NCBI GenBank assembly: GCA_030652995.1
Contig: JAUSAG010000036.1
Location: 12,349-76,348, forward strand
Direction: 5' to 3'
Length of the DNA stretch: 64,000 nucleotides
Source: Methylotenera sp.
GTDB taxonomy: Bacteria > Pseudomonadota > Gammaproteobacteria > Burkholderiales > Methylophilaceae
Part shown: positions 6,854 through 34,525 of the stretch, one piece after another
Numbering within the stretch: position 1 is the stretch's first letter
How the letters are laid out: the number at the start of each line of letters is the position of its first letter
Translations under genes and position numbers: made by a program
The notes under the pieces: model-generated
Told to the model about the DNA's origin: nothing
Database searches by the model: none
The model's input: the letters and a program-made list of their open reading frames with translations, nothing else

Positions 6854-7852
6854 ATGAAACTACTATTTATTCTTGACCCACTTTCTAGCCTAAAAAGCTA
6901 CAAGGATACCAGCCTTGCCATCATGCGCGAGGCGAGTCAGCGTGGATATGAACTGTTTGTGAGCATGCAACACGACCTGTTCTTGCGAGGAAATATAGCG
7001 AGAATTAGTGCAAAAAAATTTATATTTACTGAGCAGAGTTTTTCAACCGAACCAGCGCTTAAATACGCACCCGCAGATTTTTCTGCCATTATCATGCGCA
7101 AAGACCCACCGTTTGATAACGAATATCTATACAGCACTTATTTGCTCGAAATTGCCGTGAGCCAAGGTGCAAAGGTTTATAACAACCCGACTGCTATTCG
7201 AAGCTGGAATGAAAAACTCTCTGTTACGCGCTTTGCACAATTTTCGCCTGAGTTTTTGGTAACGGCAAATAATGTGTTAATTCGAGATTTTTTAAATACA
7301 CATAAAGATATTGTAGTAAAGCCTTTAGACGGCATGGGTGGTAGTAGCATCTTTAGACTTACGTTAACCGACCCGAATATAAGCGTGATACTGGAAACCA
7401 TCACCCAATATGGCACACGCACCATTATGGCGCAACGTTATCTGCCCGCTATTTTGCAAGGTGACAAACGCATTATCGTGATTGATGGTGAACCATTACC
7501 TTACGCACTGGCGCGCATCCCACTCGCTGGCGAAACCCGTGGCAATTTAGCTGCCGGCGGCACAGGTGTTGCGCAACCACTCAACGCACGTGACCATGAA
7601 ATTGCCATCACCGTTGGTAAAATACTTAAACAAGAAGGGCTGTTTTTAGTCGGTCTTGATGTGATAGGTGAGCATTTAACCGAAATCAACGTCACCAGCC
7701 CCACTGGTATGGTAGAAATTGCTGTGCAGACAGACTGTAAGCCAGCCGGTGTTTTTATGGATGCATTGGCATTAAATCTGAAAGTTGCGCTAGAGCGTGA
7801 TGGCGCCGCTGCAACGGTAGCCTTGATGCAGCATAGCGAAATCGAGGTTTAA
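6854..7852 (+). CDS. gshB: Glutathione synthetase
   Basis: MRKDPPFD, KPLDGMGG, GDKRI, RGNLAAGG and EINVTSPTG motifs. Confidence 0.96.
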   Translation: MKLLFILDPLSSLKSYKDTSLAIMREASQRGYELFVSMQHDLFLRGNIARISAKKFIFTEQSFSTEPALKYAPADFSAIIMRKDPPFDNEYLYSTYLLEIAVSQGAKVYNNPTAIRSWNEKLSVTRFAQFSPEFLVTANNVLIRDFLNTHKDIVVKPLDGMGGSSIFRLTLTDPNISVILETITQYGTRTIMAQRYLPAILQGDKRIIVIDGEPLPYALARIPLAGETRGNLAAGGTGVAQPLNARDHEIAITVGKILKQEGLFLVGLDVIGEHLTEINVTSPTGMVEIAVQTDCKPAGVFMDALALNLKVALERDGAAATVALMQHSEIEV

Positions 7853-7853
7853 T

Positions 7854-8972
7854 ATGATATCCCCTCGATTTCATTACACTGCATCGAGGCTACGATCAAA
7901 GCTACGTTTTATGATCACTTTATTATTGCTTATCCTGCTAGGCCTCGCTATTTTCGGGCTAAACGCTTACAACAAAGAGCCGCTCTATCATAGTCAAAGT
8001 TATGTATTTGGCACCTTAGTCGATATCAGTATTTATGGCGAGCCTGATGCACGTGCCAGCATATTGAGCAATCAGATTTTGCAAGATTTTCAGAGCCTGC
8101 ATCATCAACTCCATGCGTGGAAACCAACCAGCGAGAATCAAACAAGCGAACTAGGCGCACTTAATCATGCTTTCTCGCAAGGTAAAGCCTCTGTGAGCAT
8201 TAGTCCGCAACTTGCAGAAATGCTCACGGATGCTACAAATTTTTCAGTTAAATCTCACGGCTTATTCAACCCGGCCATCGGCCATTTAATCAACACCTGG
8301 GGCTTTCAGCGTGACGAATTTGGCGCGGTCAATATTGACGATGATAAAATCAAAGCCTTGGTAAAAAGTAAGCCTAGCATGACGGACATCGTCATTAAAA
8401 ACAATAATGCTTATAGCAACAACGTGTCAGTAAAGCTTGATTTAGGCGGCTACGCCAAAGGCTATGCCTTAGACATGGCGGCCGATTATTTACGCAAACA
8501 ACAGGTTAAAAATGCACTCATCAACATCGGCGGCAATATCGTTGCCCTTGGTCAGCATGGTAAAAATCCTTGGCGCGTAGGCATACAACACCCACGCCAG
8601 CCATCGGCAATCGCCACGCTTGATTTACCCGATGGCTGGGCAATTGGCAGCTCAGGTGATTATCAGCGCTACTTTATATTAAACGGCAAGCGTTACTGCC
8701 ATATCATTGACCCACGCACGGGTTACCCTGTACAACATACACAAGCCGTGACGGTGCTTATTTCACCGCAGGCACATGCAGGCGTACTTTCAGATGTAGC
8801 CTCAAAACCTATTTTTATTGAAGCTGCTGAAAATAAAGCACAAGCTGCGGCTACATTTGGTATTGAAAATTGGATGGTTATTGATCAAAAATCTAATTTT
8901 CTAGTCAGTAAGGCGATGGCACAAAAACTACATTGGCTTGATACAAATGTTAAATTTTTCACACAACCTTAA
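7854..8972 (+). CDS. apbE: FAD:protein FMN transferase (ApbE)
   Basis: DLGGYAKGYALD, INIGGN, SSGDYQRYF and HIIDPRTG motifs. The start may be the ATG at 7911. Confidence 0.93.
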   Translation: MISPRFHYTASRLRSKLRFMITLLLLILLGLAIFGLNAYNKEPLYHSQSYVFGTLVDISIYGEPDARASILSNQILQDFQSLHHQLHAWKPTSENQTSELGALNHAFSQGKASVSISPQLAEMLTDATNFSVKSHGLFNPAIGHLINTWGFQRDEFGAVNIDDDKIKALVKSKPSMTDIVIKNNNAYSNNVSVKLDLGGYAKGYALDMAADYLRKQQVKNALINIGGNIVALGQHGKNPWRVGIQHPRQPSAIATLDLPDGWAIGSSGDYQRYFILNGKRYCHIIDPRTGYPVQHTQAVTVLISPQAHAGVLSDVASKPIFIEAAENKAQAAATFGIENWMVIDQKSNFLVSKAMAQKLHWLDTNVKFFTQP

Positions 8973-9345
8973 ACTCGCCGTTAAATCGCTGCGACTTGGC
9001 GATTGGCTCATTGTGGCAGGCAGCCTAATCGCCATTGTCTATTTATTTCAAATTTTATGGTCTAGCGAACACGCCACTAAAGTACAAATTAGGCTCGGTG
9101 ATAAAGTTTATGCCACCTACACCCTAAACCAACAGCGCGATGTACACGTGCATGGTCCCATCGGCAACGCTGTCATCAGTATTGCGCACGGCAAGGCGCG
9201 ATTTTCAAAGTCCCCATGCCATAATCAATACTGCGTGCATCAAGGCTGGCTAACGCGTGCAGGGCAAGCCGCTATTTGCTTGCCTAATCAAATTAGCTTA
9301 GAGTTGATAGGTGAAAACAAACCTTATGACTCACTTAACTATTAG
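8938..9345 (+). CDS. NusG domain II-containing protein (DUF1312/Lin0431-like)
   Basis: N-terminal TM (GDWLIVAGSLIAIVYLF), then the SPCHNQYCVHQGWL...AICLPNQISL motif typical of NusG_II proteins. Confidence 0.85.
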   Translation: MIQMLNFSHNLKLAVKSLRLGDWLIVAGSLIAIVYLFQILWSSEHATKVQIRLGDKVYATYTLNQQRDVHVHGPIGNAVISIAHGKARFSKSPCHNQYCVHQGWLTRAGQAAICLPNQISLELIGENKPYDSLNY

Positions 9346-9356
9346 CTACCATCACT

Positions 9357-9893
9357 TTGAAGCGCACAAAAATACAAACCACGGCTGACGACCACCGCAT
9401 TGCCAAGCTTGCGGCCTTTGCCATTGCCTTGCACATGATTGAAGCCGTGATTCCATCACCTATCCCAGGCGTTAAGCCCGGCATTGCCAACATCGTTACG
9501 CTGTATGTTTTAACTCAATATGGTTTTGCAACGGCGGCTTGGGTCAGTATTTTGCGAGTATTTGCCAGTAGCTTACTACTAGGCCAATTTCTATCACCCA
9601 CTTTTGCCCTTAGTTTAGGTGGCGCGGTTTTAAGTTTAATGATGTTATGGCTTGCCATGCACCTGCCGAAAAAATACTTCAGCATCGTGTCATTAAGCAT
9701 TTTAGCGGCTTTTGCCCACATTGCCGGGCAGTTGATGATCGTACGCCTATGGCTCATTCCCCATGCCAGCGTAAGTTACTTGATTCCTATATTTGCAATC
9801 GCGGCTCTGTTTTTTGGTTTAATCAATGGCCTCATTACGGCTAAGCTTATCTATAATAAGGCTTCAAATAAACCTGAGATGCCGCCACTTTAA
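9357..9893 (+). CDS. Gx transporter family protein (Hpre_diP_synt_I-like membrane protein)
   Basis: ALHMIEAVIPSPIPGVKPGIANIV, LSPTFALSLGG and AHIAGQL motifs; about 5 hydrophobic segments. TTG start. Confidence 0.85.
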   Translation: MKRTKIQTTADDHRIAKLAAFAIALHMIEAVIPSPIPGVKPGIANIVTLYVLTQYGFATAAWVSILRVFASSLLLGQFLSPTFALSLGGAVLSLMMLWLAMHLPKKYFSIVSLSILAAFAHIAGQLMIVRLWLIPHASVSYLIPIFAIAALFFGLINGLITAKLIYNKASNKPEMPPL

Positions 9894-9922
9894 GTATGCA
9901 AATACCACACAATATTGCCAGT

Positions 9923-10589
9923 ATGCTTAACCGCCTGAAATTTAACTTCTCGCAAAATAAGGCCTTGTTGCTGGCTGTGATTATCTCGTTGCTTTTTCAT
10001 TTTTTTTACTCGCAAAATCTCCACTCAAATTGCTAGAACTATACCAAGGCAGCCAACCCATAACTATCCGCTTGGTGAATATGGAGCCAGTACAAAAAAT
10101 TATTACAATCCAAGTATAACAAAGTCCGCCAAAACTTGCGCCAACACCACTAATCACGTCAGAATAGCCCATAAAAACAAACCAAAAATTAGAAGCTAAA
10201 ACTGACATAAATCCCATTAATGAGGCACCTTACACCATAGAAAAACCAGCAATAGAATCGCTAGTTGAAGATGTGCAGCAAGCTGAACAATTACTTGAGC
10301 CAACTATTATGGAGCCACTATCAACGGGAATAATAGAATCTGCAGAGATATCAGTTGTAAATGACAGTACCACCGCACCTACACCTACCATTTTGAGGGT
10401 GAAAAGGTTATTACAACTAAACTAGGTCAACTCCAAGCACTGTACCTGATTAAGGGTGATGGTGAACAAGCAAAAACAGAACTATGGCTTGCTTTAGACT
10501 ACCAATATCTACCTGTAAAAATTCGTAAAACAGAAAAAGATGGTAGTGTTATAGAGTAAGTTATTATCAAGCTAACTCTAACTATTTAG
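9923..10589 (+). pseudogene. DUF3108 domain protein remnant
   Basis: N-terminal TM/Pro-Glu-rich segment with a frameshift in a poly-T run and in-frame stops, joined out of frame to a C-terminal segment YHFEGEKVITTKLGQLQALYLIK...TELWLALDYQYLPVKIRKTEKDGSVIE* typical of DUF3108. The central part is absent. Confidence 0.7.
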
Positions 10590-11270: not shown

Positions 11271-14200
11271 TTAATCAGACGTTGGAAGCTCGCGCCAATT
11301 TAATGGAGTAAACCCAGTAGCACTTGATGGATTAACCTGAATACTATCACTATTGCCAGAATCATTACTTATACTTATTCTGCTAGTTGTGTTGCCATCT
11401 TTTCTAAAAAATGAAACATTTGTCGCTAACCCAGTACCTGCATATGATCCAATAATACTTCCACCGCTATTTAAAATTACAGATTTACCCCCCCCATAAG
11501 TCAGTGCATATAGATTATTGTTGCCAGAAGGATTGCATGCATCACCCCCTAATGAATTTGCTGCAAAGGCAACAACACCAGCAGAACTGATCATTTCTAC
11601 ATTGACCCTATACGGTGAAGTTCCATCATTACCTAAGTCTATGTAGTAACCCATTGGTTTTGCACTATTTGCAATTGCCCCGGTTGTGGCTATAGTGCTG
11701 GTGTTGTCAACCATTTGGCTTCGTGTAACGGGAAATGAGCCGTCCATGGGCAAGGTGCTGGCCGTAAACGGCTGAGATTGAGTGCCATCTAAAATAGCAT
11801 AAAAGGATTGTCCTTGAGTACTACTTACATCACTATCAGCCAATATGCGCCCAGTTCCTACAAAAACATAACGTTTTAGAGTGCTCTTATCTACTTCAAT
11901 TAAAGGTGATACGGTAATGGGTTGATTTGAGCCAAAAGCCGCTATTTTGGTAGGTGCTGGAATAGTACTAGCATCTGAAAGATCTAAACGCCACACATTA
12001 CCCAGCGCGTCTCCCGCATACGCTGCATCGGTTAACGAGTCTCTGGCATCAGCAACAAATGCATTCACATGTGCCAAACCCGCATCATTTGCAATTGAAC
12101 CTTCACCCGTTGAAATTTTTTCCAGTAAAGCGCCGGTCTGAGGGTTTACCAAGAAGAAGTAACCCTTACCGTCGTCATTGTTATAGCCAGAAGTTAATAT
12201 TACCGTCCAACCATATTTTTTTGTTTTAACCACTAACGGCGTGTCGTATGTATAGCCCATATCTTCGTGGGTAAACTCCCACAACACTTTACCGGCCAAA
12301 CCAGCTTCGCTAGCAATGCCTGCAGGGTTAGTAACATCTAAGGCATAATAAGCCTTGCCACCTTTTCCTAACCCCCCAATTAAAATTGAATGCCAAGTAT
12401 TGTCGGCAAATTTTACATCTTCAATTGCCGGGGTAGCATCCACAAAATATTTATGGTCGTATGCAGGTTTTGCAAGTGCTCCTATACCGTTATCATAAGG
12501 GGTATTAGTTGGGCCTTCAATGACAGCATTAGGTACATAGGCAAATAACTCATTACCTCCAGCAGGCACTCCATTAAATGCATGCAACATACCATCATTA
12601 GCCCCTACATAAGCCACTGTTGAACGGGCTGTATTTGCAGATTTAAATGCAGGATACCCAGCATTAAACTCCTCGGTATAAGGAGCACGAGGTGGGCCGA
12701 CAGCCACTACTTTGGAGTTCACAATGTCACCTAGAACACTAGTGCGTGTTCTAAAACTTGCTGTGCCTGATGACCCGGTATTACTTGCATCCCCACGCAA
12801 AAAGTTTACTGCATTTGCCTGATCTGCAGGATTCACAGAAAAATTTGACAATATTAAGTTGGCAGGTCTAAATGGCGTTCCTACACAGGTTTGAGTGCCG
12901 TCCGACCCGGCGACACAAGTTGATGTTGCAATTTTTCTAGCGGTATCCCAACCTGTGTCTGCAGCCTGTGCATCTAATTTTGTCGATGCGTTCCATGCAA
13001 TTGTTTCTACTGGTATGTCCCCAGAAAAAGTTACCGTATTGCCCACTACATTGCCGGTCCAAGTATCAGCTTTGTAACTTGTAGCAAAACTCATGGCGCC
13101 TGATATAACGCTTGGACTAGAAACGGCAAAAGTATTAGAAGACCCGGACAATTTGCTTAAAATATCCATAAAAGCATTATCTAAACCAGCCATCATGGCT
13201 GCTGGATTATTGGCTCTATAATAGTTATCTGGGTCATTATCTCCATTTTTATCCCATGTCGCGACAGGTAACGCCACGGTTGGACCTAGGTAAGGGTCAA
13301 ACCCCGTTGGTACATCAAAACCACCAAATTTTGCAGTTAAATAAAATTGATTAAAACGGTTGCTACCATCGTTTCTAAAGCCAGACTCTAGTACATCTAA
13401 CCAATAAGTACTTACAGTTTGCTTCCCGGCAAAGTCTGGACGTATATCACGGGTATGCAAATCATAGGCTATGCCAGCCATGTAATAACGAGCATTGCCA
13501 GCGCCAGTGTTAAAATTACTTAAAGGAGCGGGTGTGCCTTGCAATGCGCCCACTCGATTGGTAGCTACTGCTACATTAAAATTGGTCGGTACTGCCATAT
13601 TAAGACTTCCGTCCCAATCTGCTGTCACCTCTGGCGGAATAGCAGGCTCATTAGCTCCACGTGAGGTACTTCCAGGTAGATTGGCATCATCCCAAGTGTT
13701 GGTGTCCCCAATACCTATAATAAAATTGGCTTGGCAAGCATATTGCACAGGATCGTTCCATGCAGTGATCACAGGGAATCCATCAATCTGCGCAGCGGTC
13801 AGGGCGTTAGTATAGCTCGCTACATTGCCTTTATTTCGATAGTACCGACTGGCGGTATAAACCAACTCGCTTACTGGGTCATAAGACTTATAACCAGATG
13901 CACTTAGGCCAAATTTATTTAAATAATTAATTACACCGCTATTGCTTACACCACTCGCTAAAGCTGTAGCAGGATCAGGATTTGTGTAAAATATCCCTGT
14001 ATTAGCATCCCACTCTGGATTGGGATTCGGCGTATCCGCAGAACCTGGATTAACAACTAATGGGCCTAAAGGGCGCATTTGGGCTCTTAATACACCACCA
14101 TCACGCGCTCTATCACTATGATTTAGATAACCTAGTGCCGCAAAATTTAATTTTTTCGAGTTTTTTTGAATCAAGCCAGTTGGTTTGTAGTTTGTACCAT

Positions 14201-27017: not shown

Positions 27018-30000
27018 TTAAGAGAGATTTGGCGCAAGCCAGCGTTCTAGATAGTCTTTTGGTAGCCCTCTACGTTGTGCCATATCCAGCCATTGGTCTT
27101 CACCAATTTTATCAACACTAAAGTATTTAGCTTGGCGGTGCGCAAAGTAAAAGCCAGAAACTGCCGCTGCAGGTTGCATGGCGAATGATTCGGTGAGTGT
27201 CATGCCGATTTCATCGCATTGCAGTAAGTTGAACATATCGGTTTTTACGGTATGGTCGGGGCAGGCGGGGTAGCCAGGTGCGGGGCGAATGCCTTGATAA
27301 GATTCTTTAATCAGCGCATCAACTGGCAACGTTTCATTTGCCGCGTAACCCCATAAATCAGTGCGGATGCGCTCATGCATGTATTCAGCAAAAGCTTCGG
27401 CAAGCCTATCCGCCAGCGATTTGAACATAATGCCGCTGTAATCATCATGCGCATCGGCAAAACGTTTTTCAATTTTCTCTGTCCCTAAACCTGCCGTCAC
27501 CGCGAATAAGCCGATGTAATCTGCGGCCTCACCTTTAGGCGCAATTAAGTCACTTAAACATTGATTTGGGCGCGGCACGCCATCAATCACTGGTTTTACG
27601 CTTTGCTGACGCATGCCGTAGTAAGTAAAGGCGACTTGATTGCGACTGTCGTCGGTGTAGATTTCAATATCGTCATCATTCACTGTGTTAGCAGGCATGA
27701 GCGCAATGACGCCATTGGCGCTGAGCCATCTGCCATCAATGATTTTTTTGAGCATGGCTTGCGCTTCAGCAAATACTTTAGTTGCCGCGTCACCTACCAC
27801 ATGGTCACTTAAAATCGCGGGATAGCTACCGGCTAAATCCCAAGTTTGAAAGAACGGCGACCAGTCGATATATTTGGCGATTAAGCTTAAATCAATGTTC
27901 TTAAACACGCGGCGACCAATAAATTTTGGTTTTACGGGTGTATTGTCGCCATCAAAAGCAAGTTTCATTTTGTTCTTACGGGCATCGGCAATCGTCAGCA
28001 AAGGCACGCCTTTTTTATTGGCGTGTTGTGCGCGTGCTTTTTCGTAATCTGTATTGATATCGGCAATATAAGCATCGCGCGTTCCTGGCGTAAGTAGCGA
28101 TTGCATCACCGCCACCGAGCGCGAGGCATCAGGCACATAAATAATTGGGCCGTCATAAAACGGGGCAATTTTAACGGCGGTGTGGGCACGCGAAGTCGTG
28201 GCGCCACCAATCAGTAAGGGCATTTTTAAATCATGAAAATACGGGTCGCGTTGCATCTCTTTTGCCACATACGCCATTTCTTCCAACGACGGCGTAATCA
28301 ACCCCGATAAGCCAATAATATCTGCATTCTCGGCCTTGGCCATCGCCAAAATTTCAGCCGCGGGCACCATCACGCCCATGTTGACCACTTCGAAGTTATT
28401 GCATTGCAACACTACCGAGACGATATTTTTACCAATGTCATGCACGTCGCCTTTTACTGTGGCAATCACCACTTTACCTTTTGGTTTAGCGACAACGCCG
28501 GTGCGCTCTTGCTCTAGCGCTTTCTCTGCTTCAATGAACGGGATTAAATGCGCTACGGCTTGCTTCATCACGCGGGCAGACTTCACCACTTGCGGCAGAA
28601 ACATCTTGCCCTGACCGAATAAATCGCCGACCACGTTCATGCCGTCCATCAAGGGGCCTTCAATCACGTGGATGGGTCTGCCACCACTTGCCATGACTGC
28701 CGCGCGCGCTTCTTCGGTGTCGTCCACAATAAAGTCGGTAATGCCATGCACCATGGCGTGGCTCAGGCGTTTAGCCACTGGCGCGGGGGCTTCAGCCGTG
28801 CCGCGCCACTCTAATGTTGCAGCTTCTTTTTTGCCTCCGGCCACTAGCGTACTGGCAATTTCTATCATGCGCTCGGTCGGGGCGAGTAGATTATTCTCAT
28901 CGATAATACGGTTGAGTACCACGTCTTCCACACGTTGTTTTAGCTCTGGAGCGAGGTCATCGTACACACCCATCATGCCGGCATTAACAATACCCATGGT
29001 CATGCCCGCTTTAATGGCGTGATATAAAAACACGGTATGAATCGCTTCACGCGCAGGGTCGTTGCCCCTAAAACTGAAACTGACATTAGATACGCCGCCC
29101 GATATTTTGGCATGCGGTAAATTTTGCTTAATCCAGCGCGTAGCTTCAATAAAGTCCACGGCGTAATTGTTGTGCTCTTCAATCCCTGTCGCGATGGCGA
29201 AAATATTGGGGTCAAAAATAATGTCTTCTGGCGGGAAATCAATCCCTACCAATAAGTCATAGGCACGTTTGCAGATTTCTGTTTTTCGCGCGTAAGTATC
29301 GGCCTGACCCTTTTCGTCAAACGCCATCACAATAATGGACGCACCGTAACGGCGACACAGTTTAGCCTGGCGCAAAAACTCCGCCTCGCCTTCTTTCATC
29401 GAGATTGAATTAACAATCGACTTGCCCTGCACGCATTTCAAGCCGGCTTCTATCACGCTCCACTTGCTGGAATCGATCATAATCGGCACGCGCGCAATAT
29501 CAGGCTCACTGGCGATTAAGTTTAAAAAGTGCGTCATGGCCTGCACGGCATCCAGCATGCCTTCATCCATGTTAATGTCGATGACTTGTGCACCGTTTTC
29601 AACCTGCTGCCGCGCCACGCTCAAGGCTTCTTCAAACTGACCATTGATAATCATGCGTGCAAAGGCTTTGCTGCCGGTAACGTTGGTGCGCTCGCCCACA
29701 TTGACGAATAGTGAATTCTCGTCAATGATAAATGGCTCCAAGCCTGAGAGTTTGGTGACCGGTGCAAGTGTCGGCACCTGACGTGGCGGCAGGTTTTTAA
29801 TAGCCTCAAAAATCGACTTAATGTGCGGCGGGGTAGTGCCACAGCAACCACCCGCGATGTTGATAAAGCCACTGGTAGCGAATTCTTTTATTAGGCTGGA
29901 CGTCACATCAGGCGTTTCATCAAAGCCGGTATCGCTCATTGGATTGGGTAGCCCTGCATTCGGGTAAATACACACAAAAGTATCGGCAATTTTTGAAAGC

Positions 30001-30809
30001 TCCTCTGCATAAGGACGCATTAAAGTTGCGCCCAAAGCACAGTTTAAACCGATGGTGATTGGCTTAGCATGACGTACCGAATGCCAAAATGCCGTCACAG
30101 TTTGACCAGATAAAATACGCCCTGAAGCATCAGTCACCGTACCTGAAATCATAATCGGGTAACGCTGTCCGCTCTCTTCAAAAAATGTATCGATAGCAAA
30201 TAAAGCTGCCTTGCAATTGAGCGTATCAAAGATGGTTTCCACCATTAAGATATCAGCACCACCTTCTACCAGTGCTCGCGTTTGCTCTAAGTAAGCATTC
30301 ACCAACTGATCAAAACTCACATTACGCGATGCGGGGTCATTTACATCAGGCGAGATGCTGGCGGTTTTTGGTGTGGGCCCCAACGTGCCTGCCACAAAGC
30401 GCGGTTTATCTGGTGTGCTGTATTTATCGCAGGCTGTGCGGGCAAGCTTGGCCGATTGCACATTCATCTCGTAAACAAGATGCGCCATGTGGTAATCATC
30501 CTGCGCCACACTGGTGGCACCGAAGGTGTTGGTTTCGATAATGTCGGCGCCTGCGGCCAAGTATTGCTCGTGAATTTCTTGAATAATTTGCGGTTGTGTC
30601 AGGCTTAACAGCTCGTTATTGCCTTTTACAAACAGCTGGCGCTCGCCTGTCGGCGCAGCAAAGTCAGCAAAACGCTCACCGCGATAATCGGCCTCGGTCT
30701 GCTTATATTGCTGAATCATGGTGCCCATAGCGCCATCCAGTATAAGGATGCGCTGTTTGAGCAGTGCTCGAAGTTTTATTTCTGTTGCAGATGCGATTGA
30801 TTGGTTCAT
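27018..30809 (-). CDS. metH: Cobalamin-dependent methionine synthase
   Basis: [35 protein letters not shown] and [10 protein letters not shown] motifs; 1263 aa. Confidence 0.98.
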
Positions 30810-30875
30810 GAAGAATCAGTGATTAAAATTTATCTAATTTTATCACGCAACCTGTTTTGTCAGGTAACTAGCCCA

Positions 30876-32302
30876 CTAAATTGCACCACGTCGATACTGC
30901 ACTGCTTCGGCAATATGCGCGGGTTTTATATCAGCGTCACAGCTCAAATCGGCAATAGTACGCGCTACTTTTAAAATACGATGATACGCACGCGCAGATA
31001 AATTGAGTCGTGAAATAGCGGTTTTGAGTAATGTTAACCCTGCGTCATCGGCTTTGCAGTAGTGCTAAATCTCCTTGGTCCCCAGTAGGTTGTTGGGCTT
31101 GCCTTGACGTGCTAACTGTAATGACCGTGCCTTTTCTAATCGTGTTCTTACTACATGTGAGTGTTCACTATCGCTCGCTTGAATCAGCTCATCTTCTTTG
31201 AGGCAGGAACTTCAATATGCAAATCAATAAGGTCTAACAAAGGCCCGGAAGTTTTAGCTTTATAGCGCGAAACTTGATCCGGCGTGCAACGACATTTGTT
31301 ATTATAATGACCCAAATAGCCACAAGACATGGGTTCATGGCCGCAATTAGCTGAAATCTAGCGGGGTATTCCGCCTGCCGTGCCGCGCGTCAAATAGTGA
31401 TGTGTCCCCTTTCAAGTGGCTCGAGCAAAACCTCTAATACTTTTCGATCAAATATAGACCTCATCTAAAAATAAAACACCATTATGTGCCAGACTAATTT
31501 CCCCTGGACGCTGAATGCCACCATCACCCACCAAAGCCACGCCTGACGCGGTATGATGCGGTGCGCGATAGGGTCTGCGTTTCCAGTTTTCAAGCTTATA
31601 ACTGCCATTTAATGATTGAATCGTGGCAGCTTCCAGCGCTTCATCCTCGGTCATTCTCGGCAAAATGCCCGCAAAACGGCTGGCTAACATGCTTTTACCT
31701 GTGCCTGGCGGGCCGCTCAAAATGACGCTATGTCAGCACGCTGCGGAGATCTCTAACGCCCGCTTGGGCATACTTTGCGCTTTTACGTCGCTAAAAACTG
31801 GATAAGAAAATTCCTGCGGTTGCTCGTTAGGGGCTAGTTGAGTCAGTGCAGTATGACCGCTTAAATGCGCGCAAACCTCAAGCAGTGATTTTGCCGGGTA
31901 GATAATGGCATCGCGCACCAAGGTAGCTTCAGTCGCACTCATTTGGGGTAAGATAAATGCACGTTTTGGTGCATTTTGTAGTAATGCGCCGTTATTCGCA
32001 TGACTCATCATGCTGGATGTCATGGCTAGCGCACCTCTTATTGGGCGCAGTTCGCCCGTTAGTGCTAATTCACCAGCAAATTCATAGTGGCTCAACGCTG
32101 CAGAAGGTATCTGCCCAGATGCCGCTAAAATACCTAAGGCAATAGGTAAGTCGTAACGTCCGCTTTCTTTGGGTAAATCTGCAGGCGCAAGGTTCACGGT
32201 AATCCGTCGTGCTGGAAACTCAAACTGCGCGGTCAGTAAAGCCGCACGCACGCGGTCTTTGCTTTCCTTAACTTCGGTTTCAGGTAAGCCCACAATGGTC
32301 AA
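30876..32302 (-). pseudogene. comM: comM/yifB (Mg-chelatase-like AAA+ ATPase), main body
   Basis: TIVGLPETEVKESKDRVRAA, NLAPADLPKESGRYDL, Walker A GPPGTGKSML, GEISLAHNGVLFLDE, AAMNP and SARAYHRILKVARTIADL. In-frame stops at 31733-35, 31390-92 and 31065-67 plus frameshifts. Confidence 0.92.
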
Positions 32303-33123
32303 TATTGATATAGTCTTACATGCTGATTTGGCACGTAATGTATTAGCCTGGAAATGTGTCGGTGTATGTTAAGTTGTTATGGTAAATATACGGGGATTTT
32401 ACACCACATAATTAATTGGCAGAGTCGTGCTTTTGTTTTCTGAAATCCCACGGTGGCATAGCATTTGTATCTGCCCACAAGCCTAGTTTGTCACGTTGCG
32501 CCAAATATTCTGCGTCAGCGTAAATTGAGCGATCTTCAACTTCTTGCTCATTTTGATATTTCTTATAATGCCACGCTAGGCCACGCTGGATTTGATGAAG
32601 ATTTACATCTTTACCATTGAACATTATTTTACCAATGATTCGCTGGTATCTGTCACGTTTATTAAATTCAACAGTGACGACTTTACCGCCTATTTCATCA
32701 TCTAAAGCTTGCTTTGATTTATTACCGAACGCCTGCTTTTTCTCAGGAGCATCAATGCCTGACAGCCTGATTTTATGTAGTTCATTATCGTTAGTTAGCA
32801 CATTCACCGTGTCACCATCTGTGACTTTTATGACCTTGCCTTGTAACTGATCGGCAAGACTGGTGAGTGTTGTGAACGCCAAGATTAATGCTAATATTGT
32901 TTTCAATGTGCCAGTCCGTTGGTGCTAGATTGTAGTGTGGGGTGATGGAAATCTGCCCGCCAATTTAACCATTGAAAAACAATCAGTTACATACCAGTGC
33001 TAGCAGTGTGAGATGTTTTGTTAACGAGTTTTTTTGTAGATTAAATATCCATCAAAGTATTCTTTGAATCAACCTTGATGCAGTAGACACTTTTAAGCTA
33101 ATTGTTGTCCTGTTTACTTATTT
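32300..33123. mobile_element. ~820-bp foreign insert within the comM 5' region (remnant of an integrative element)
   Basis: Separates comM codons 1-15 from the TIVGLPE segment and contains a nuclease gene; no integrase in the insert. Confidence 0.65.
32412..32906 (-). CDS. Thermonuclease (SNase) family protein with signal peptide
   Basis: VIKVTDGDT, RLSGIDAPE, DRYQR and GLAWHY...GLW motifs; N-terminal MKTILALILAFTTLTSLA. TTG start. Confidence 0.93.
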   Translation of the reverse strand: MKTILALILAFTTLTSLADQLQGKVIKVTDGDTVNVLTNDNELHKIRLSGIDAPEKKQAFGNKSKQALDDEIGGKVVTVEFNKRDRYQRIIGKIMFNGKDVNLHQIQRGLAWHYKKYQNEQEVEDRSIYADAEYLAQRDKLGLWADTNAMPPWDFRKQKHDSAN

Positions 33124-33169
33124 GCTCCATACCGCTTAGCGCGAGGCTATACAATACAGCTAAGCTCAT
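33124..33169 (-). pseudogene. comM: comM/yifB N-terminal fragment
   Basis: Reads MSLAVLYSLALSGME, the typical YifB N-terminus, starting 10 bp downstream of the ubiK stop. Confidence 0.8.
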
Positions 33170-33179
33170 CAAAGTAGCC

Positions 33180-33419
33180 TCATGGTTTTTGTTTTGCTTC
33201 TAATTCTGTTAACTTGATCTCTAATAATTCCAGCTTTTGCCGCGTATTACGTAGCACCTCCGCCTGCACATCAAACTCCTCACGTGAAACAAACTCCATT
33301 TTGGTGAACACGCCCTTTAATAGTGCATTGATGTTTTTCTCCGCATCCTCCAATGGAGAGTTTTTAATCATCTCTTTGATTTTATTAGATATTCCATTTA
33401 CTTTTTCTATACTCAACAT
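33180..33419 (-). CDS. ubiK: UbiK/BMFP accessory factor (YqiC family)
   Basis: KMEFVSREEFDVQAEVLRNTRQKLELLE coiled coil; canonical position upstream of comM. Confidence 0.9.
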   Translation of the reverse strand: MLSIEKVNGISNKIKEMIKNSPLEDAEKNINALLKGVFTKMEFVSREEFDVQAEVLRNTRQKLELLEIKLTELEAKQKP

Positions 33420-33530
33420 GTTGCATCCTTAACTAATTTGTTGCAGTTTAGCAGGTTTCTTCACATAAAGACAAAGCGCTCACAGAATCAACATAAAACT
33501 TATCTTATTGATTATTAACAAAATTTATGT

Positions 33531-33546
33531 TGGCACGCGCATTGCT
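33531..33546 (+). promoter_or_regulatory. Sigma-54 promoter of torF-glnK-amtB
   Basis: TGGCACGCGCATTGCT matches the -24/-12 consensus TGGCAC-N5-TTGCW. Confidence 0.85.
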
Positions 33547-33595
33547 TTAGTAATTATGTAATTTTTGTTTTTATTTTTTTAAGGAGTCAAGCAAC

Positions 33596-34525
33596 ATGCG
33601 TAAATCATTATTATCACTTGCAGTACTAAGCGCCATTGCTCTACCTACGTTCGTATCAGCTGAAGAAGTCGCTGAGGCATCTACTACGGAAGCGGCTGTA
33701 GCGCCAGCTGTAGCAAAATCAGCATGGTCAGCATCTTCTAACATCGGCTTTGTTTCTGATTACTATACTCGTGGTATTTCACAATCTTGGCATAAGCCAG
33801 CATTGCAAGGTGGTATTGACTTTGCACACACCAGCGGCTTTTTCGTTGGCGTATGGGGTTCAAATGTTTCACCTAACACTTTTCCTGATGCATCATTGGA
33901 ATTAGATGCCTATTTTGGTTACAACGGTCAAATCTCTGCAATAAAAGACTTAAATTATACTGTAGGCGCTATTGGTTACTTTTATCCAGGTGGCGATTGG
34001 AAAAAATGTGTGGCATGTACAACTGCAGACGGCGTTACACCTAATACTGGAGGTCGCTGGGACACCTATGAAGCAAACTTTGGTCTTTCTTACAAATGGG
34101 TTAGTGCTAAAGCATCCGTCACGTTGGGTGACTGGTTTGGTGCCGAAAAAGGCACAGGTTTCACTAGCGGTTCAAGTGGTACAACCTACATTGAATTAAA
34201 TGCTGCTTATCCTTTGCCATTTTGGGATTTAACATTAATTGGTCACGTGGGTAGATTAGATGTTTCAACCCAACTGTCTCAAGTGGTTGCAGATGTAGGT
34301 AACGGTGAAAGAAGTCCAGATTACACTGACTATAAAATTGGTCTGAGTAAATCTTTCAGCTTTGCCAACGCTGATGGTTGGAATGCCGGCCTGTATTACG
34401 TTGGTGCATCAGATAACGGCTACTGGGGTAAAACTGGTTTTGGCGGCCCAAGCTTTAACGGCAGTACAGAACATAAAGATTTGGCTGACAACCGCTGGGT
34501 TGTGTCTTTAACTCGCGCTTTTTAA
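33596..34525 (+). CDS. TorF family putative porin
   Basis: Signal peptide, SDYYTRGISQ...PALQGGIDF, ELDAYFGY and a terminal aromatic residue (TRAF); upstream of glnK. Confidence 0.87.
   Translation: MRKSLLSLAVLSAIALPTFVSAEEVAEASTTEAAVAPAVAKSAWSASSNIGFVSDYYTRGISQSWHKPALQGGIDFAHTSGFFVGVWGSNVSPNTFPDASLELDAYFGYNGQISAIKDLNYTVGAIGYFYPGGDWKKCVACTTADGVTPNTGGRWDTYEANFGLSYKWVSAKASVTLGDWFGAEKGTGFTSGSSGTTYIELNAAYPLPFWDLTLIGHVGRLDVSTQLSQVVADVGNGERSPDYTDYKIGLSKSFSFANADGWNAGLYYVGASDNGYWGKTGFGGPSFNGSTEHKDLADNRWVVSLTRAF

Follow-up and report, generated by a model that had tools for sequence, protein, structure and literature searches.

The comM gene of a groundwater Methylotenera is interrupted by a short insert whose one intact gene encodes a predicted exported nuclease. 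We examined this gene in a contiguous stretch of 64,000 nucleotides (positions 12,349 to 76,348 of contig JAUSAG010000036.1; hereafter the window, whose own numbering is used unless another locus is named). Judged by its sequence, modelled fold and genomic contexts, the nuclease is very probably a Sec-exported, Ca2+-type DNase of the staphylococcal nuclease (SNase) fold and the conserved end gene of Methylotenera islands that lie in competence genes. Of the 11 homologues with at least 72% identity and a readable context, ten either close an island that lies in comM or comEC or adjoin a large serine recombinase (LSR) gene; locus L093 is the exception. We tentatively suggest that the enzyme may serve these islands by destroying incoming DNA.

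The predicted exported nuclease and the insert in comM

The features on which the argument turns are as follows:

32412-32906, minus strand: SNase-family nuclease gene, an open reading frame (ORF) of 164 amino acids with a TTG start
32853-32906, minus strand: predicted signal peptide of the nuclease, residues 1-18, by sequence criteria
32300-33124, minus strand: whole insert, 825 bp, delimited by alignment to loci L001 and L007; deletion remnant of a genomic island, recombinase gene absent
33125-33169, minus strand: 5' remnant of comM, codons 1-15, MSLAVLYSLALSGME, by six-frame translation; native R9 is now L
30876-32299, minus strand: comM' pseudogene, native residues 33-507, with three nonsense codons and three frameshifting deletions
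33180-33419, minus strand: ubiK (BMFP family; Pfam BMFP, E = 2.8e-20), the native upstream neighbor of comM

The nuclease ORF matches the Pfam family SNase (PF00565; COG1525) with E = 5.8e-24 and 85 bits (cut-off 21) over profile positions 1-107 of 107, and this is the only Pfam match of the protein. The motifs DGDT (30-33), GIDAPE (50-55) and DRYQR (85-89) are present. Residues D32, R47, D52, E55, Y87 and R89 align to D21, R35, D40, E43, Y85 and R87 in solved structures of staphylococcal nuclease, and these six Ca2+-ligand or catalytic positions are invariant in an alignment of 34 homologues. The position of staphylococcal T41, which binds via its backbone, is A53 in the window nuclease. An AlphaFold2 model with a mean predicted local distance difference test score (pLDDT) of 90.7 shows an OB-fold barrel and three helices. 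When this model was used as a Foldseek query, the top 50 structures were almost all SNase structures, the best being variants of staphylococcal nuclease (template modeling score 0.85, with target-normalized values up to 0.86; root-mean-square deviation ~2.2 Å).

The N-terminus, MKTILALILAFTTLTSLA with DQ following the predicted cleavage site, carries a Lys at position 2, then a hydrophobic stretch, with Ser at -3 and Ala at -1. A lipobox Cys is absent, and the regions, MK-TILALILAFTTL-TSLA ahead of DQ, follow a type-I layout. Across the 34 homologues the signal-peptide sequence drifts while its features stay, with K or R at position 2 in most, a hydrophobic core, a small residue at -3 and, in 32 of 34, A at -1. 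Residues 2-13 form a low-confidence N-terminal helix in the AlphaFold2 model. A preliminary description, made from the letters of the window alone, had called the protein an intact exported-type SNase with these three motifs; the Pfam match, the aligned active site and the signal-peptide features bear this out. Homologues carry the Joint Genome Institute name 'endonuclease YncB'.

In more than 100 native Methylotenera ComM proteins, the N-terminus is MSLAVLYSRALSGMDAPEVVVEVHLANGLPSF running into TIVGLPE and the length is about 507 amino acids; the stop codon of ubiK lies 10 bp ahead of the comM ATG. In the window, codons 1-15 come straight after ubiK, and comM is then split by the 825-bp insert and resumes at codon 33, the T of TIVGLPE (32299). 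Seventeen comM codons (A16-F32) are gone at the left junction, and the target is not recoverable without loss from the left and right attachment ends (attL and attR). The insert has a GC content of ~0.39-0.40, compared with 0.45-0.51 in comM and metH, has no LSR gene at its end, and no similarity to a recombinase or to comEC was found anywhere in the 64-kb window. On the alignment to L001, what remains is the fossil of a far larger island, now lacking a recombinase. The insert had been taken for an element, a view that the alignment does not uphold; the nuclease is indeed the only cargo in the window, though only because the rest of the larger island has been deleted.

The comM' copy behind the insert is broken throughout. 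Its nonsense codons lie at positions 189, 304 and 413 (counted from T33), its deletions of 2, 1 and 1 nt at nucleotides 841, 975 and 1101 relative to four intact relatives, and it also lacks a start, such that no uninterrupted frame runs through the ChlI N-domain, the Mg_chelatase AAA+ domain and the C-terminal domain. Every one of these lesions is common to 11 near-identical contigs from several samples and three metagenome-assembled genomes (MAGs), so the broken comM' is fixed in this population. The population is near-clonal, with 99.8-100% identity over 7.5 kb (27018-34525).

For the nuclease, pairwise dN/dS against homologues is 0.02-0.12, and the window branch carries 20 synonymous and 12 non-synonymous changes without stops or indels, a pN/pS of 0.16 that compares with 0.12-0.18 on sister branches. 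These ratios point to purifying selection, both across the homologues and on the window branch itself. The preliminary description had also taken the contrast between an intact nuclease and a decayed comM as a sign of selection. Selection on the window branch agrees with that reading, but the contrast in lesions alone carries less weight than it appeared to: there are none in the nuclease and seven in comM', and seven per 1424 nt predicts 2.4 per 495 nt, for which P(0) is ~0.09.

Related islands in comM and comEC

Five other Methylotenera lineages (loci L001, L010, L175, L176 and L177) carry the same nuclease at this comM junction. It is 83% identical to the window protein in L001 and 72-87% identical in the other four, and the junction, GTAAGACTATATC(A/T)ATATTG followed by ACC, is identical in all five and the window. 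Upstream of the nuclease lie 6 to >10 kb of island cargo that differs between lineages and consists largely of anti-phage defense genes. In L001, the nuclease is preceded by a complete 105-amino-acid ORF and then by >10 kb; the cargo of L001/L090 includes two N6/N4 DNA methyltransferases. L010 carries GajA/GajB, an MvaI/BcnI restriction-modification system, and MazG_C with a hydroxymethyl-deoxyuridine (hmdU) kinase, and L176 carries SIR2 with HerA; a tyrosine integrase and other genes are also among the cargo of the L010, L175, L176 and L177 islands. The 10-kb flanks of L090, L010 and L171 stop short of these islands' left ends, and a look-up with the window UbiK returned the same reduced population only. 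Homologues thus recur in comM-inserted elements, in five lineages at one junction, and they recur as well in LSR islands in comEC. The possibility that the nuclease is an ordinary chromosomal gene upstream of an intact comM, which had seemed true of L001, was ruled out, since L001 comM is without the native 32 residues and has the island junction.

Just upstream of the nuclease, L010 (5616-9589) and L177 (2637-6598) have in common a module of four to five genes encoding MazG_C, a 5-hmdU DNA kinase helical domain, an unknown protein of 258 amino acids, Peptidase_M78 and a helix-turn-helix protein. These are genes of DNA-hypermodification type in a chromosomal island.

Two short sequences next to the junction matter for what follows:

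32361-32405, minus strand: C-box, GGTGTAA..CGTATATTTACC..TACACC, which carries the chimeric comM' ATG in relatives
32300-32319, minus strand: right island end, GTAAGACTATATCAATATTG, directly before comM codon 33; candidate recombinase half-site

In L001, L010, L175, L176 and L177 the comM' frame is open for ~470 codons and extends 27-29 codons into the island. The island-coded residues stand in for the first 32 residues of ComM, with the ATG inside the C-box, and read MYHNNLPTPTPF..., MYPIHISTPFV..., MYPIQIPTPFV... or MYMYPIQLPTL..., with a shared ending KT(I/M)SIL. Differences in the length of the chimeric comM' between lineages are all multiples of three. The C-box ATG is present in all five lineages with an open comM' and absent from the window and from the copies preceding recombinase genes in L004, L092 and L091; the window C-box has ATT in place of this codon, and a 1-nt insertion breaks the frame as well. 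Between island-bearing lineages comM' has a dN/dS of 0.06-0.08, with synonymous sites near saturation. The L001 branch of comM' shows 42 synonymous and 4 non-synonymous changes (pN/pS 0.03); on the window branch the counts are 30 and 25, three of the latter being stops (pN/pS 0.26). An open frame with low dN/dS in the relatives indicates that insertion itself spares ComM and that the window copy decayed later. By these measures the chimeric comM' is maintained by selection, and the decay in the window is a later event on its own branch. The earlier proposal that the insertion removes ComM, as a second layer of a block on transformation, is therefore contradicted by an intact comM' in five of five relatives.

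In the island carriers, comM' follows the nuclease on the same strand at a distance of 25-110 bp. Since native comM begins 10 bp after ubiK, comM in an island carrier has to draw its transcription from the island; the simplest arrangement is a message shared with the nuclease, and the two genes probably form one transcript. A scan of 32200-33500 for sigma-70 and terminator sites gave matches at the level of shuffled sequence and none on the nuclease strand; it showed no terminator-like site between the nuclease and comM' in the window.

Islands without the nuclease use the same site. Among the best 120 ComM hits, 117 are native or merely shortened, and the three with foreign N-termini all break at the identical residue. 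Two of these three, L172 and L174, break comM at the same nucleotide as the nuclease islands and carry an LSR of 600 amino acids (Resolvase, Recombinase and Zn ribbon) whose gene starts 41-45 nt from the junction and reads away from comM'. These LSRs at the junction identify comM codon 32/33 as an LSR attachment site. The site-specific junction is shared by independent islands, namely the six with the nuclease and L172 and L174, whose cargo is unrelated (a ThsB-like TIR protein, SLATT, QueC, a UvrD helicase and others) and does not include the nuclease. The L172 LSR gene occupies 8196-9998 and that of L174 8173-9975, each with the junction at 10001, corresponding to window site 32299/32300; the comM' frames of both are also open, with short foreign N-termini.

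A second set of islands lies in comEC. In L004/L171, L092 and L094, nucleases of 79-83% identity are 280-700 bp from an LSR gene coding for 541-570 amino acids, and the order is nuclease, LSR, then a comEC' that begins inside the AISGLHI motif and matches only positions 192-663 of TIGR00361 (ComEC/Rec2) and positions 35-267 of Pfam Competence. The missing 5' third of the gene did not turn up within 10 kb. Cargo of the comEC type includes SIR2 with HerA, a Lamassu-like LmuB, CTD9/MC5 and an MvaI/BcnI-methyltransferase-Vsr system whose MvaI/BcnI is the same as in L010. NCBIfam searches with the LSRs of relatives gave weak matches to CcrB and XisF. One comEC-island genome and the window population derive from a single run series. 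The comEC-splitting loci are at L004 7474-9075, L092 12747-14324 and L094 2916-2975.

An LSR gene is thus present at the island end in L004, L092, L094, L172, L174 and, in part, L091, and no recombinase lies between the nuclease and the junction in the comM-type nuclease islands. In L091, the nuclease is followed by the C-box and the next 12 nt, both shared with comM-type islands, and then by the opposite-strand 3' end of an LSR gene. From this arrangement and the shared C-box, we infer that the comM-type nuclease islands have lost an LSR gene. No contig joining nuclease, LSR and comM' was found; the L091 LSR fragment, used as a query, gave short or partial proteins only, and the one long contig from that search (L189) holds an unrelated 89-amino-acid remnant and neither nuclease nor comM.

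Divergence along the island end is discordant. The window and L175 are 83-93% identical in the nuclease (86% of nucleotides overall) and 57-78% identical in most of comM' (73%), and the downstream genes of L175 differ; the window and L001 are ~83% identical in the nuclease and 90-98% identical in comM'. It follows that the island end has moved, or recombined, from one lineage or species to another. This exchange between species involves ends that, in the window and in L175 and L001, have no recombinase.

Beyond Methylotenera, 80 species-level genomes with a homologue yielded two more cases of an SNase gene beside a truncated comM, with other break positions. In Desulfogranum marinum (L080, 8419-10621), comM' starts from about residue 63, an intact exported SNase-Ada_Zn protein is encoded 130 bp away, and an IS1595-like gene adjoins. 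In Pseudomonadota MAG252 (L070, 9953-11004), comM starts from the LPEF motif at about residue 307 and the SNase looks frameshifted. In L071, comM is intact and its 3' end lies 0.5 kb from the nuclease gene. Chance placement of genes predicts ~0.05 comM neighbors in 80 loci, a null that disregards comM as an island hot spot. As to the source of the gene, a phage origin was rejected, a homologue being present in only 5 of 50,697 phage records.

Possible roles of the nuclease

The data can be drawn together as follows. A family of islands lies in competence genes, one set in comM at codons 32/33 and one splitting comEC with the LSR gene beside the nuclease. In the window lineage, the island has shrunk to 825 bp with loss of its variable cargo, most of the 105-amino-acid ORF, any recombinase and 17 comM codons, leaving the nuclease and short conserved flanks. 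The island-coded start of comM' was lost as well, after which comM' gathered 3 stops and 3 frameshifts. As to function, the enzyme would be exported to the periplasm or the outside and would cut DNA without sequence preference; incoming DNA would be destroyed before uptake, transformation would fall, and the island would less often be replaced by the empty allele. In the window, the nuclease would be the single layer contributed by the island, ComM having been lost later and separately.

We consider it somewhat less likely than not that the nuclease serves its island by destroying incoming DNA. The argument rests on the constancy of the nuclease while the cargo varies, and on the targets being two competence genes; destruction of incoming DNA fits the distribution of homologues better than do the alternatives. 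Observations of several kinds nevertheless weigh against it, and they are taken up here with the alternatives on which they bear.

The first concern the hosts. Purifying selection on comM' in the five island-bearing lineages suggests that ComM is still in use in these hosts and that incoming DNA can probably still recombine there despite the nuclease. In Methanococcus maripaludis a secreted thermonuclease is required for transformation (PMC10133366), and one could suppose that the Methylotenera enzyme, co-transcribed with comM', processes incoming double-stranded DNA in the periplasm and so aids uptake. In six lineages the gene precedes comM' on the same strand, and the scan of the window showed nothing terminator-like between the two, which agrees with such a role. 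Most Methylotenera, however, have a native comM after ubiK without the nuclease (the 117 of 120 hits above), the same gene occurs in islands that split comEC and would thereby abolish uptake, and it is borne by islands and plasmids and not by the core genome. A pro-competence function is for these reasons very improbable.

The second concern the link to competence genes. As comM is a general island hot spot, the association of the nuclease with it may partly be hitch-hiking. The gene could be cargo of benefit to the host, an oligotrophic groundwater methylotroph that degrades extracellular DNA for phosphorus, nitrogen or nucleotides or in biofilm remodeling, and its link to competence genes would reflect integration preference only. 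Roles in extracellular DNA turnover and biofilms are established for secreted SNase-type enzymes such as Staphylococcus Nuc (PMC3994088). On this view the gene would have outlived the rest of the island because the cell profits from it. Of all island genes, the nuclease alone outlasted the deletions, in an insert that lacks a recombinase and has gone to fixation in the population (17 contigs, 3 MAGs); the window branch still shows purifying selection on it, and the DNA comes from groundwater. Host benefit leaves unexplained why the nuclease is the constant end gene at two competence genes with largely defense cargo between, and why there are comM-junction cases in other phyla. We regard it as a doubtful explanation, albeit one of appreciable weight.

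The third concern homologues on plasmids. Proteins of similar size with 45-54% identity over ~85% of the length are found in at least 5000 PLSDB plasmids, 4380 of them conjugative. They are mostly enterobacterial, with many from Escherichia, Klebsiella and Salmonella, an example being the IncX4 backbone of pCROD2, and for them an anti-transformation role is not the obvious one. These IncX4 thermonuclease genes and ParB of RP4/RK2, presumably also a member of the SNase family, are plasmid backbone genes and not island genes at competence junctions. In the parCBA stability operon of RP4, parA (a site-specific recombinase) and parB (a nuclease) are adjacent (PMC7314908), although ParA is a small resolvase and not an LSR such as those beside the island nucleases. 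YokF, from the Bacillus subtilis prophage SPbeta, destroys plasmid DNA as it crosses the envelope and leaves competence unaffected (bioRxiv 10.1101/2025.10.26.684598). Like the window nuclease, YokF and YncB have an SNase-type domain and a signal peptide, and YokF is also on a mobile element; YokF differs in its 296 amino acids, membrane anchor and C-terminal auto-inhibitory domain, and in acting on nanotube-mediated plasmid transfer.

Such parallels, together with the mostly conjugative plasmids and the direct adjacency of nuclease and LSR genes in L004, L092, L094 and L091, could be taken to mean that the nuclease belongs to an element-maintenance or anti-competitor module coupled to the serine recombinase, ParB/ParA- or YokF-like, which promotes island stability or excludes rival plasmids. 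An exported enzyme cannot act on the cytoplasmic recombination of its own island, and the comM-targeting LSR islands L172 and L174 do without the nuclease. This explanation appears distinctly unlikely.

The last concern the window copy itself. Its start codon is TTG, as in near-identical contigs, and ATG in all eight relatives whose DNA was examined; the 15 nt 5' of the start cannot be aligned to the conserved leader of the relatives, and the pre-start segment is 13 nt shorter than in L001. Of nine single-nucleotide polymorphisms (SNPs) in the population, the nuclease gene (495 bp) accounts for three, namely A53S, A149S and a synonymous change, a density of 6.1 per kb compared with 0.3-0.7 per kb in comM' and metH, and A53S sits in the IDAPE loop of the active site. 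The nuclease sequence was found in no RNA runs, only in DNA metagenomes from groundwater. The window nuclease might be a decaying relic that is no longer expressed, with a frame kept open by want of time and not by selection; the start region, the lack of a sigma-70-like site on its strand, the raised SNP density and the chance expectation for an absence of lesions (P ~0.09) can all be read in that sense. Yet TTG is a legitimate bacterial start, the catalytic residues are intact, there is no stop or indel, and the window-branch ratio is the same as that of the sister branches. We judge a relic to be improbable.

Known systems offer partial precedents for destruction of incoming DNA by an island. 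Insertion of mobile elements in comM, comEC and other competence genes is established, as is degradation of transforming DNA by DNases of mobile elements (PMC4774983, PMC12378983, PMC11472951). IdeA/SxnA of the Vibrio cholerae integrative and conjugative element VchInd5/SXT are Dns homologues with 51% identity to Dns (PMC7693049). IdeA/SxnA and Campylobacter Dns, CJE0566 and CJE1441 (CJIE1, 2, 4) are, like the window nuclease, exported and encoded on integrated mobile elements (PMC12378983, PMC7693049), in the present case an island remnant in comM with relatives in LSR islands. The IdeA/SxnA/Dns elements have been proposed or shown to degrade incoming DNA and are not described as inserted in competence genes. 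The preliminary description had invoked IdeA and Dns as precedents, and these hold as a functional analogy and not as one of family: homology to IdeA/Dns was rejected, as Pfam gives SNase PF00565 only.

Competence-gene sites are likewise used by insertions in comM of Acinetobacter, Aggregatibacter, Mannheimia and Vibrio, in comEC of S. pneumoniae and in comK of Listeria (PMC4774983, PMC12378983, PMC7693049). The Methylotenera islands differ from these in their LSR recombinase, in a comM site that follows codon 32, compared with 197 bp in V. cholerae C6709, in islands of relatives that rebuild an open comM' with a start and N-terminus of its own, maintained by purifying selection, and in an exported nuclease as the constant end gene. 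SCCmec Ccr, XisF, SPbeta and A118 resemble the islands of the relatives in having an LSR (Resolvase, Recombinase and Zn_ribbon_recom) at the end beside a split gene; the islands described here differ from them in targeting comM and comEC in a betaproteobacterial methylotroph, and the window copy is without a recombinase.

A more specific proposal is that the nuclease is a dedicated anti-curing backbone gene of an undescribed Methylophilaceae family of LSR islands, which target comM and comEC and in many cases carry anti-phage defense genes. Islands of the comM type, apparently non-autonomous since a search beside the junction found no recombinase, would rebuild a working comM with an island-coded N-terminus in an operon behind the nuclease, and the C-box would double as a cassette site. 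Taken in all its parts, this proposal is tentative and rather unlikely to be correct throughout.

To our knowledge and in reviews (PMC12378983, PMC4774983), competence-gene insertion and DNases have been described in separate elements, mostly of pathogens. Here a single island family of common freshwater and groundwater methylotrophs seems to join both, with an exported nuclease of a different fold, sites in comM and comEC, and defense cargo; a search of reviews and papers found no description of such a combination. Should the nuclease lower transformation, the islands would provide a clean case of the 'chromosomal curing' conflict in environmental bacteria, and could hint at the role of the very common thermonuclease genes of plasmids. 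The chimeric, selected comM also warns against scoring each 'interrupted comM' as a loss of function.

Smaller parts of the insert and of related island ends

Three further features were recognized in the insert by comparison with related islands:

33099-33126, minus strand: left-end motif AGCAAATAAGTAAACAGGACAACAATTA, 28 nt, abutting comM codon 15; its 17-mer core is unique in the window
33041-33064, minus strand: remnant of the 3' end of the 105-amino-acid island ORF (last 24 nt), where homology to L001 resumes; the ORF is complete at L001 4534-4851
32995-33022, minus strand: B-box, core CATCTCACACTGC, ~110 bp before the nuclease start codon; candidate promoter/operator region

For the 17-mer core of the left-end motif, 0.04 chance matches are expected in the window, and the core also occurs within the L001 island (L001 4410-4426). 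The motif has the same breakpoint in two contexts, against comM codon 15 in the window (33099-33126) and against island DNA in L001 (4398-4426). A left breakpoint in common may mark a recombination site, and may mean that islands have accreted in tandem. Terminal repeats were not found in the insert, where only short chance-level matches occur, and a tRNA scan found no tRNA genes in the window.

The B-box is conserved before the nuclease in the window, L001, L175 and L004, is weaker in L176 and is unrecognizable in L010 and L177. Together with another intergenic module, the A-box (CCGTTGCCCTGT), it lies around the nuclease in an order that differs between comM-type and comEC-type islands (L001 4434-4445 and 4879-4891; L004 4875-4887, 5495-5506 and 5596-5608), which suggests modular shuffling of the island end. 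The C-box occurs twice in L177 (~7480-7520 and 8200-8245), where the copies flank an extra 175-amino-acid ORF of unknown family, and twice in tandem in L092 (10831-10950); these doubled C-boxes look like a cassette insertion site.

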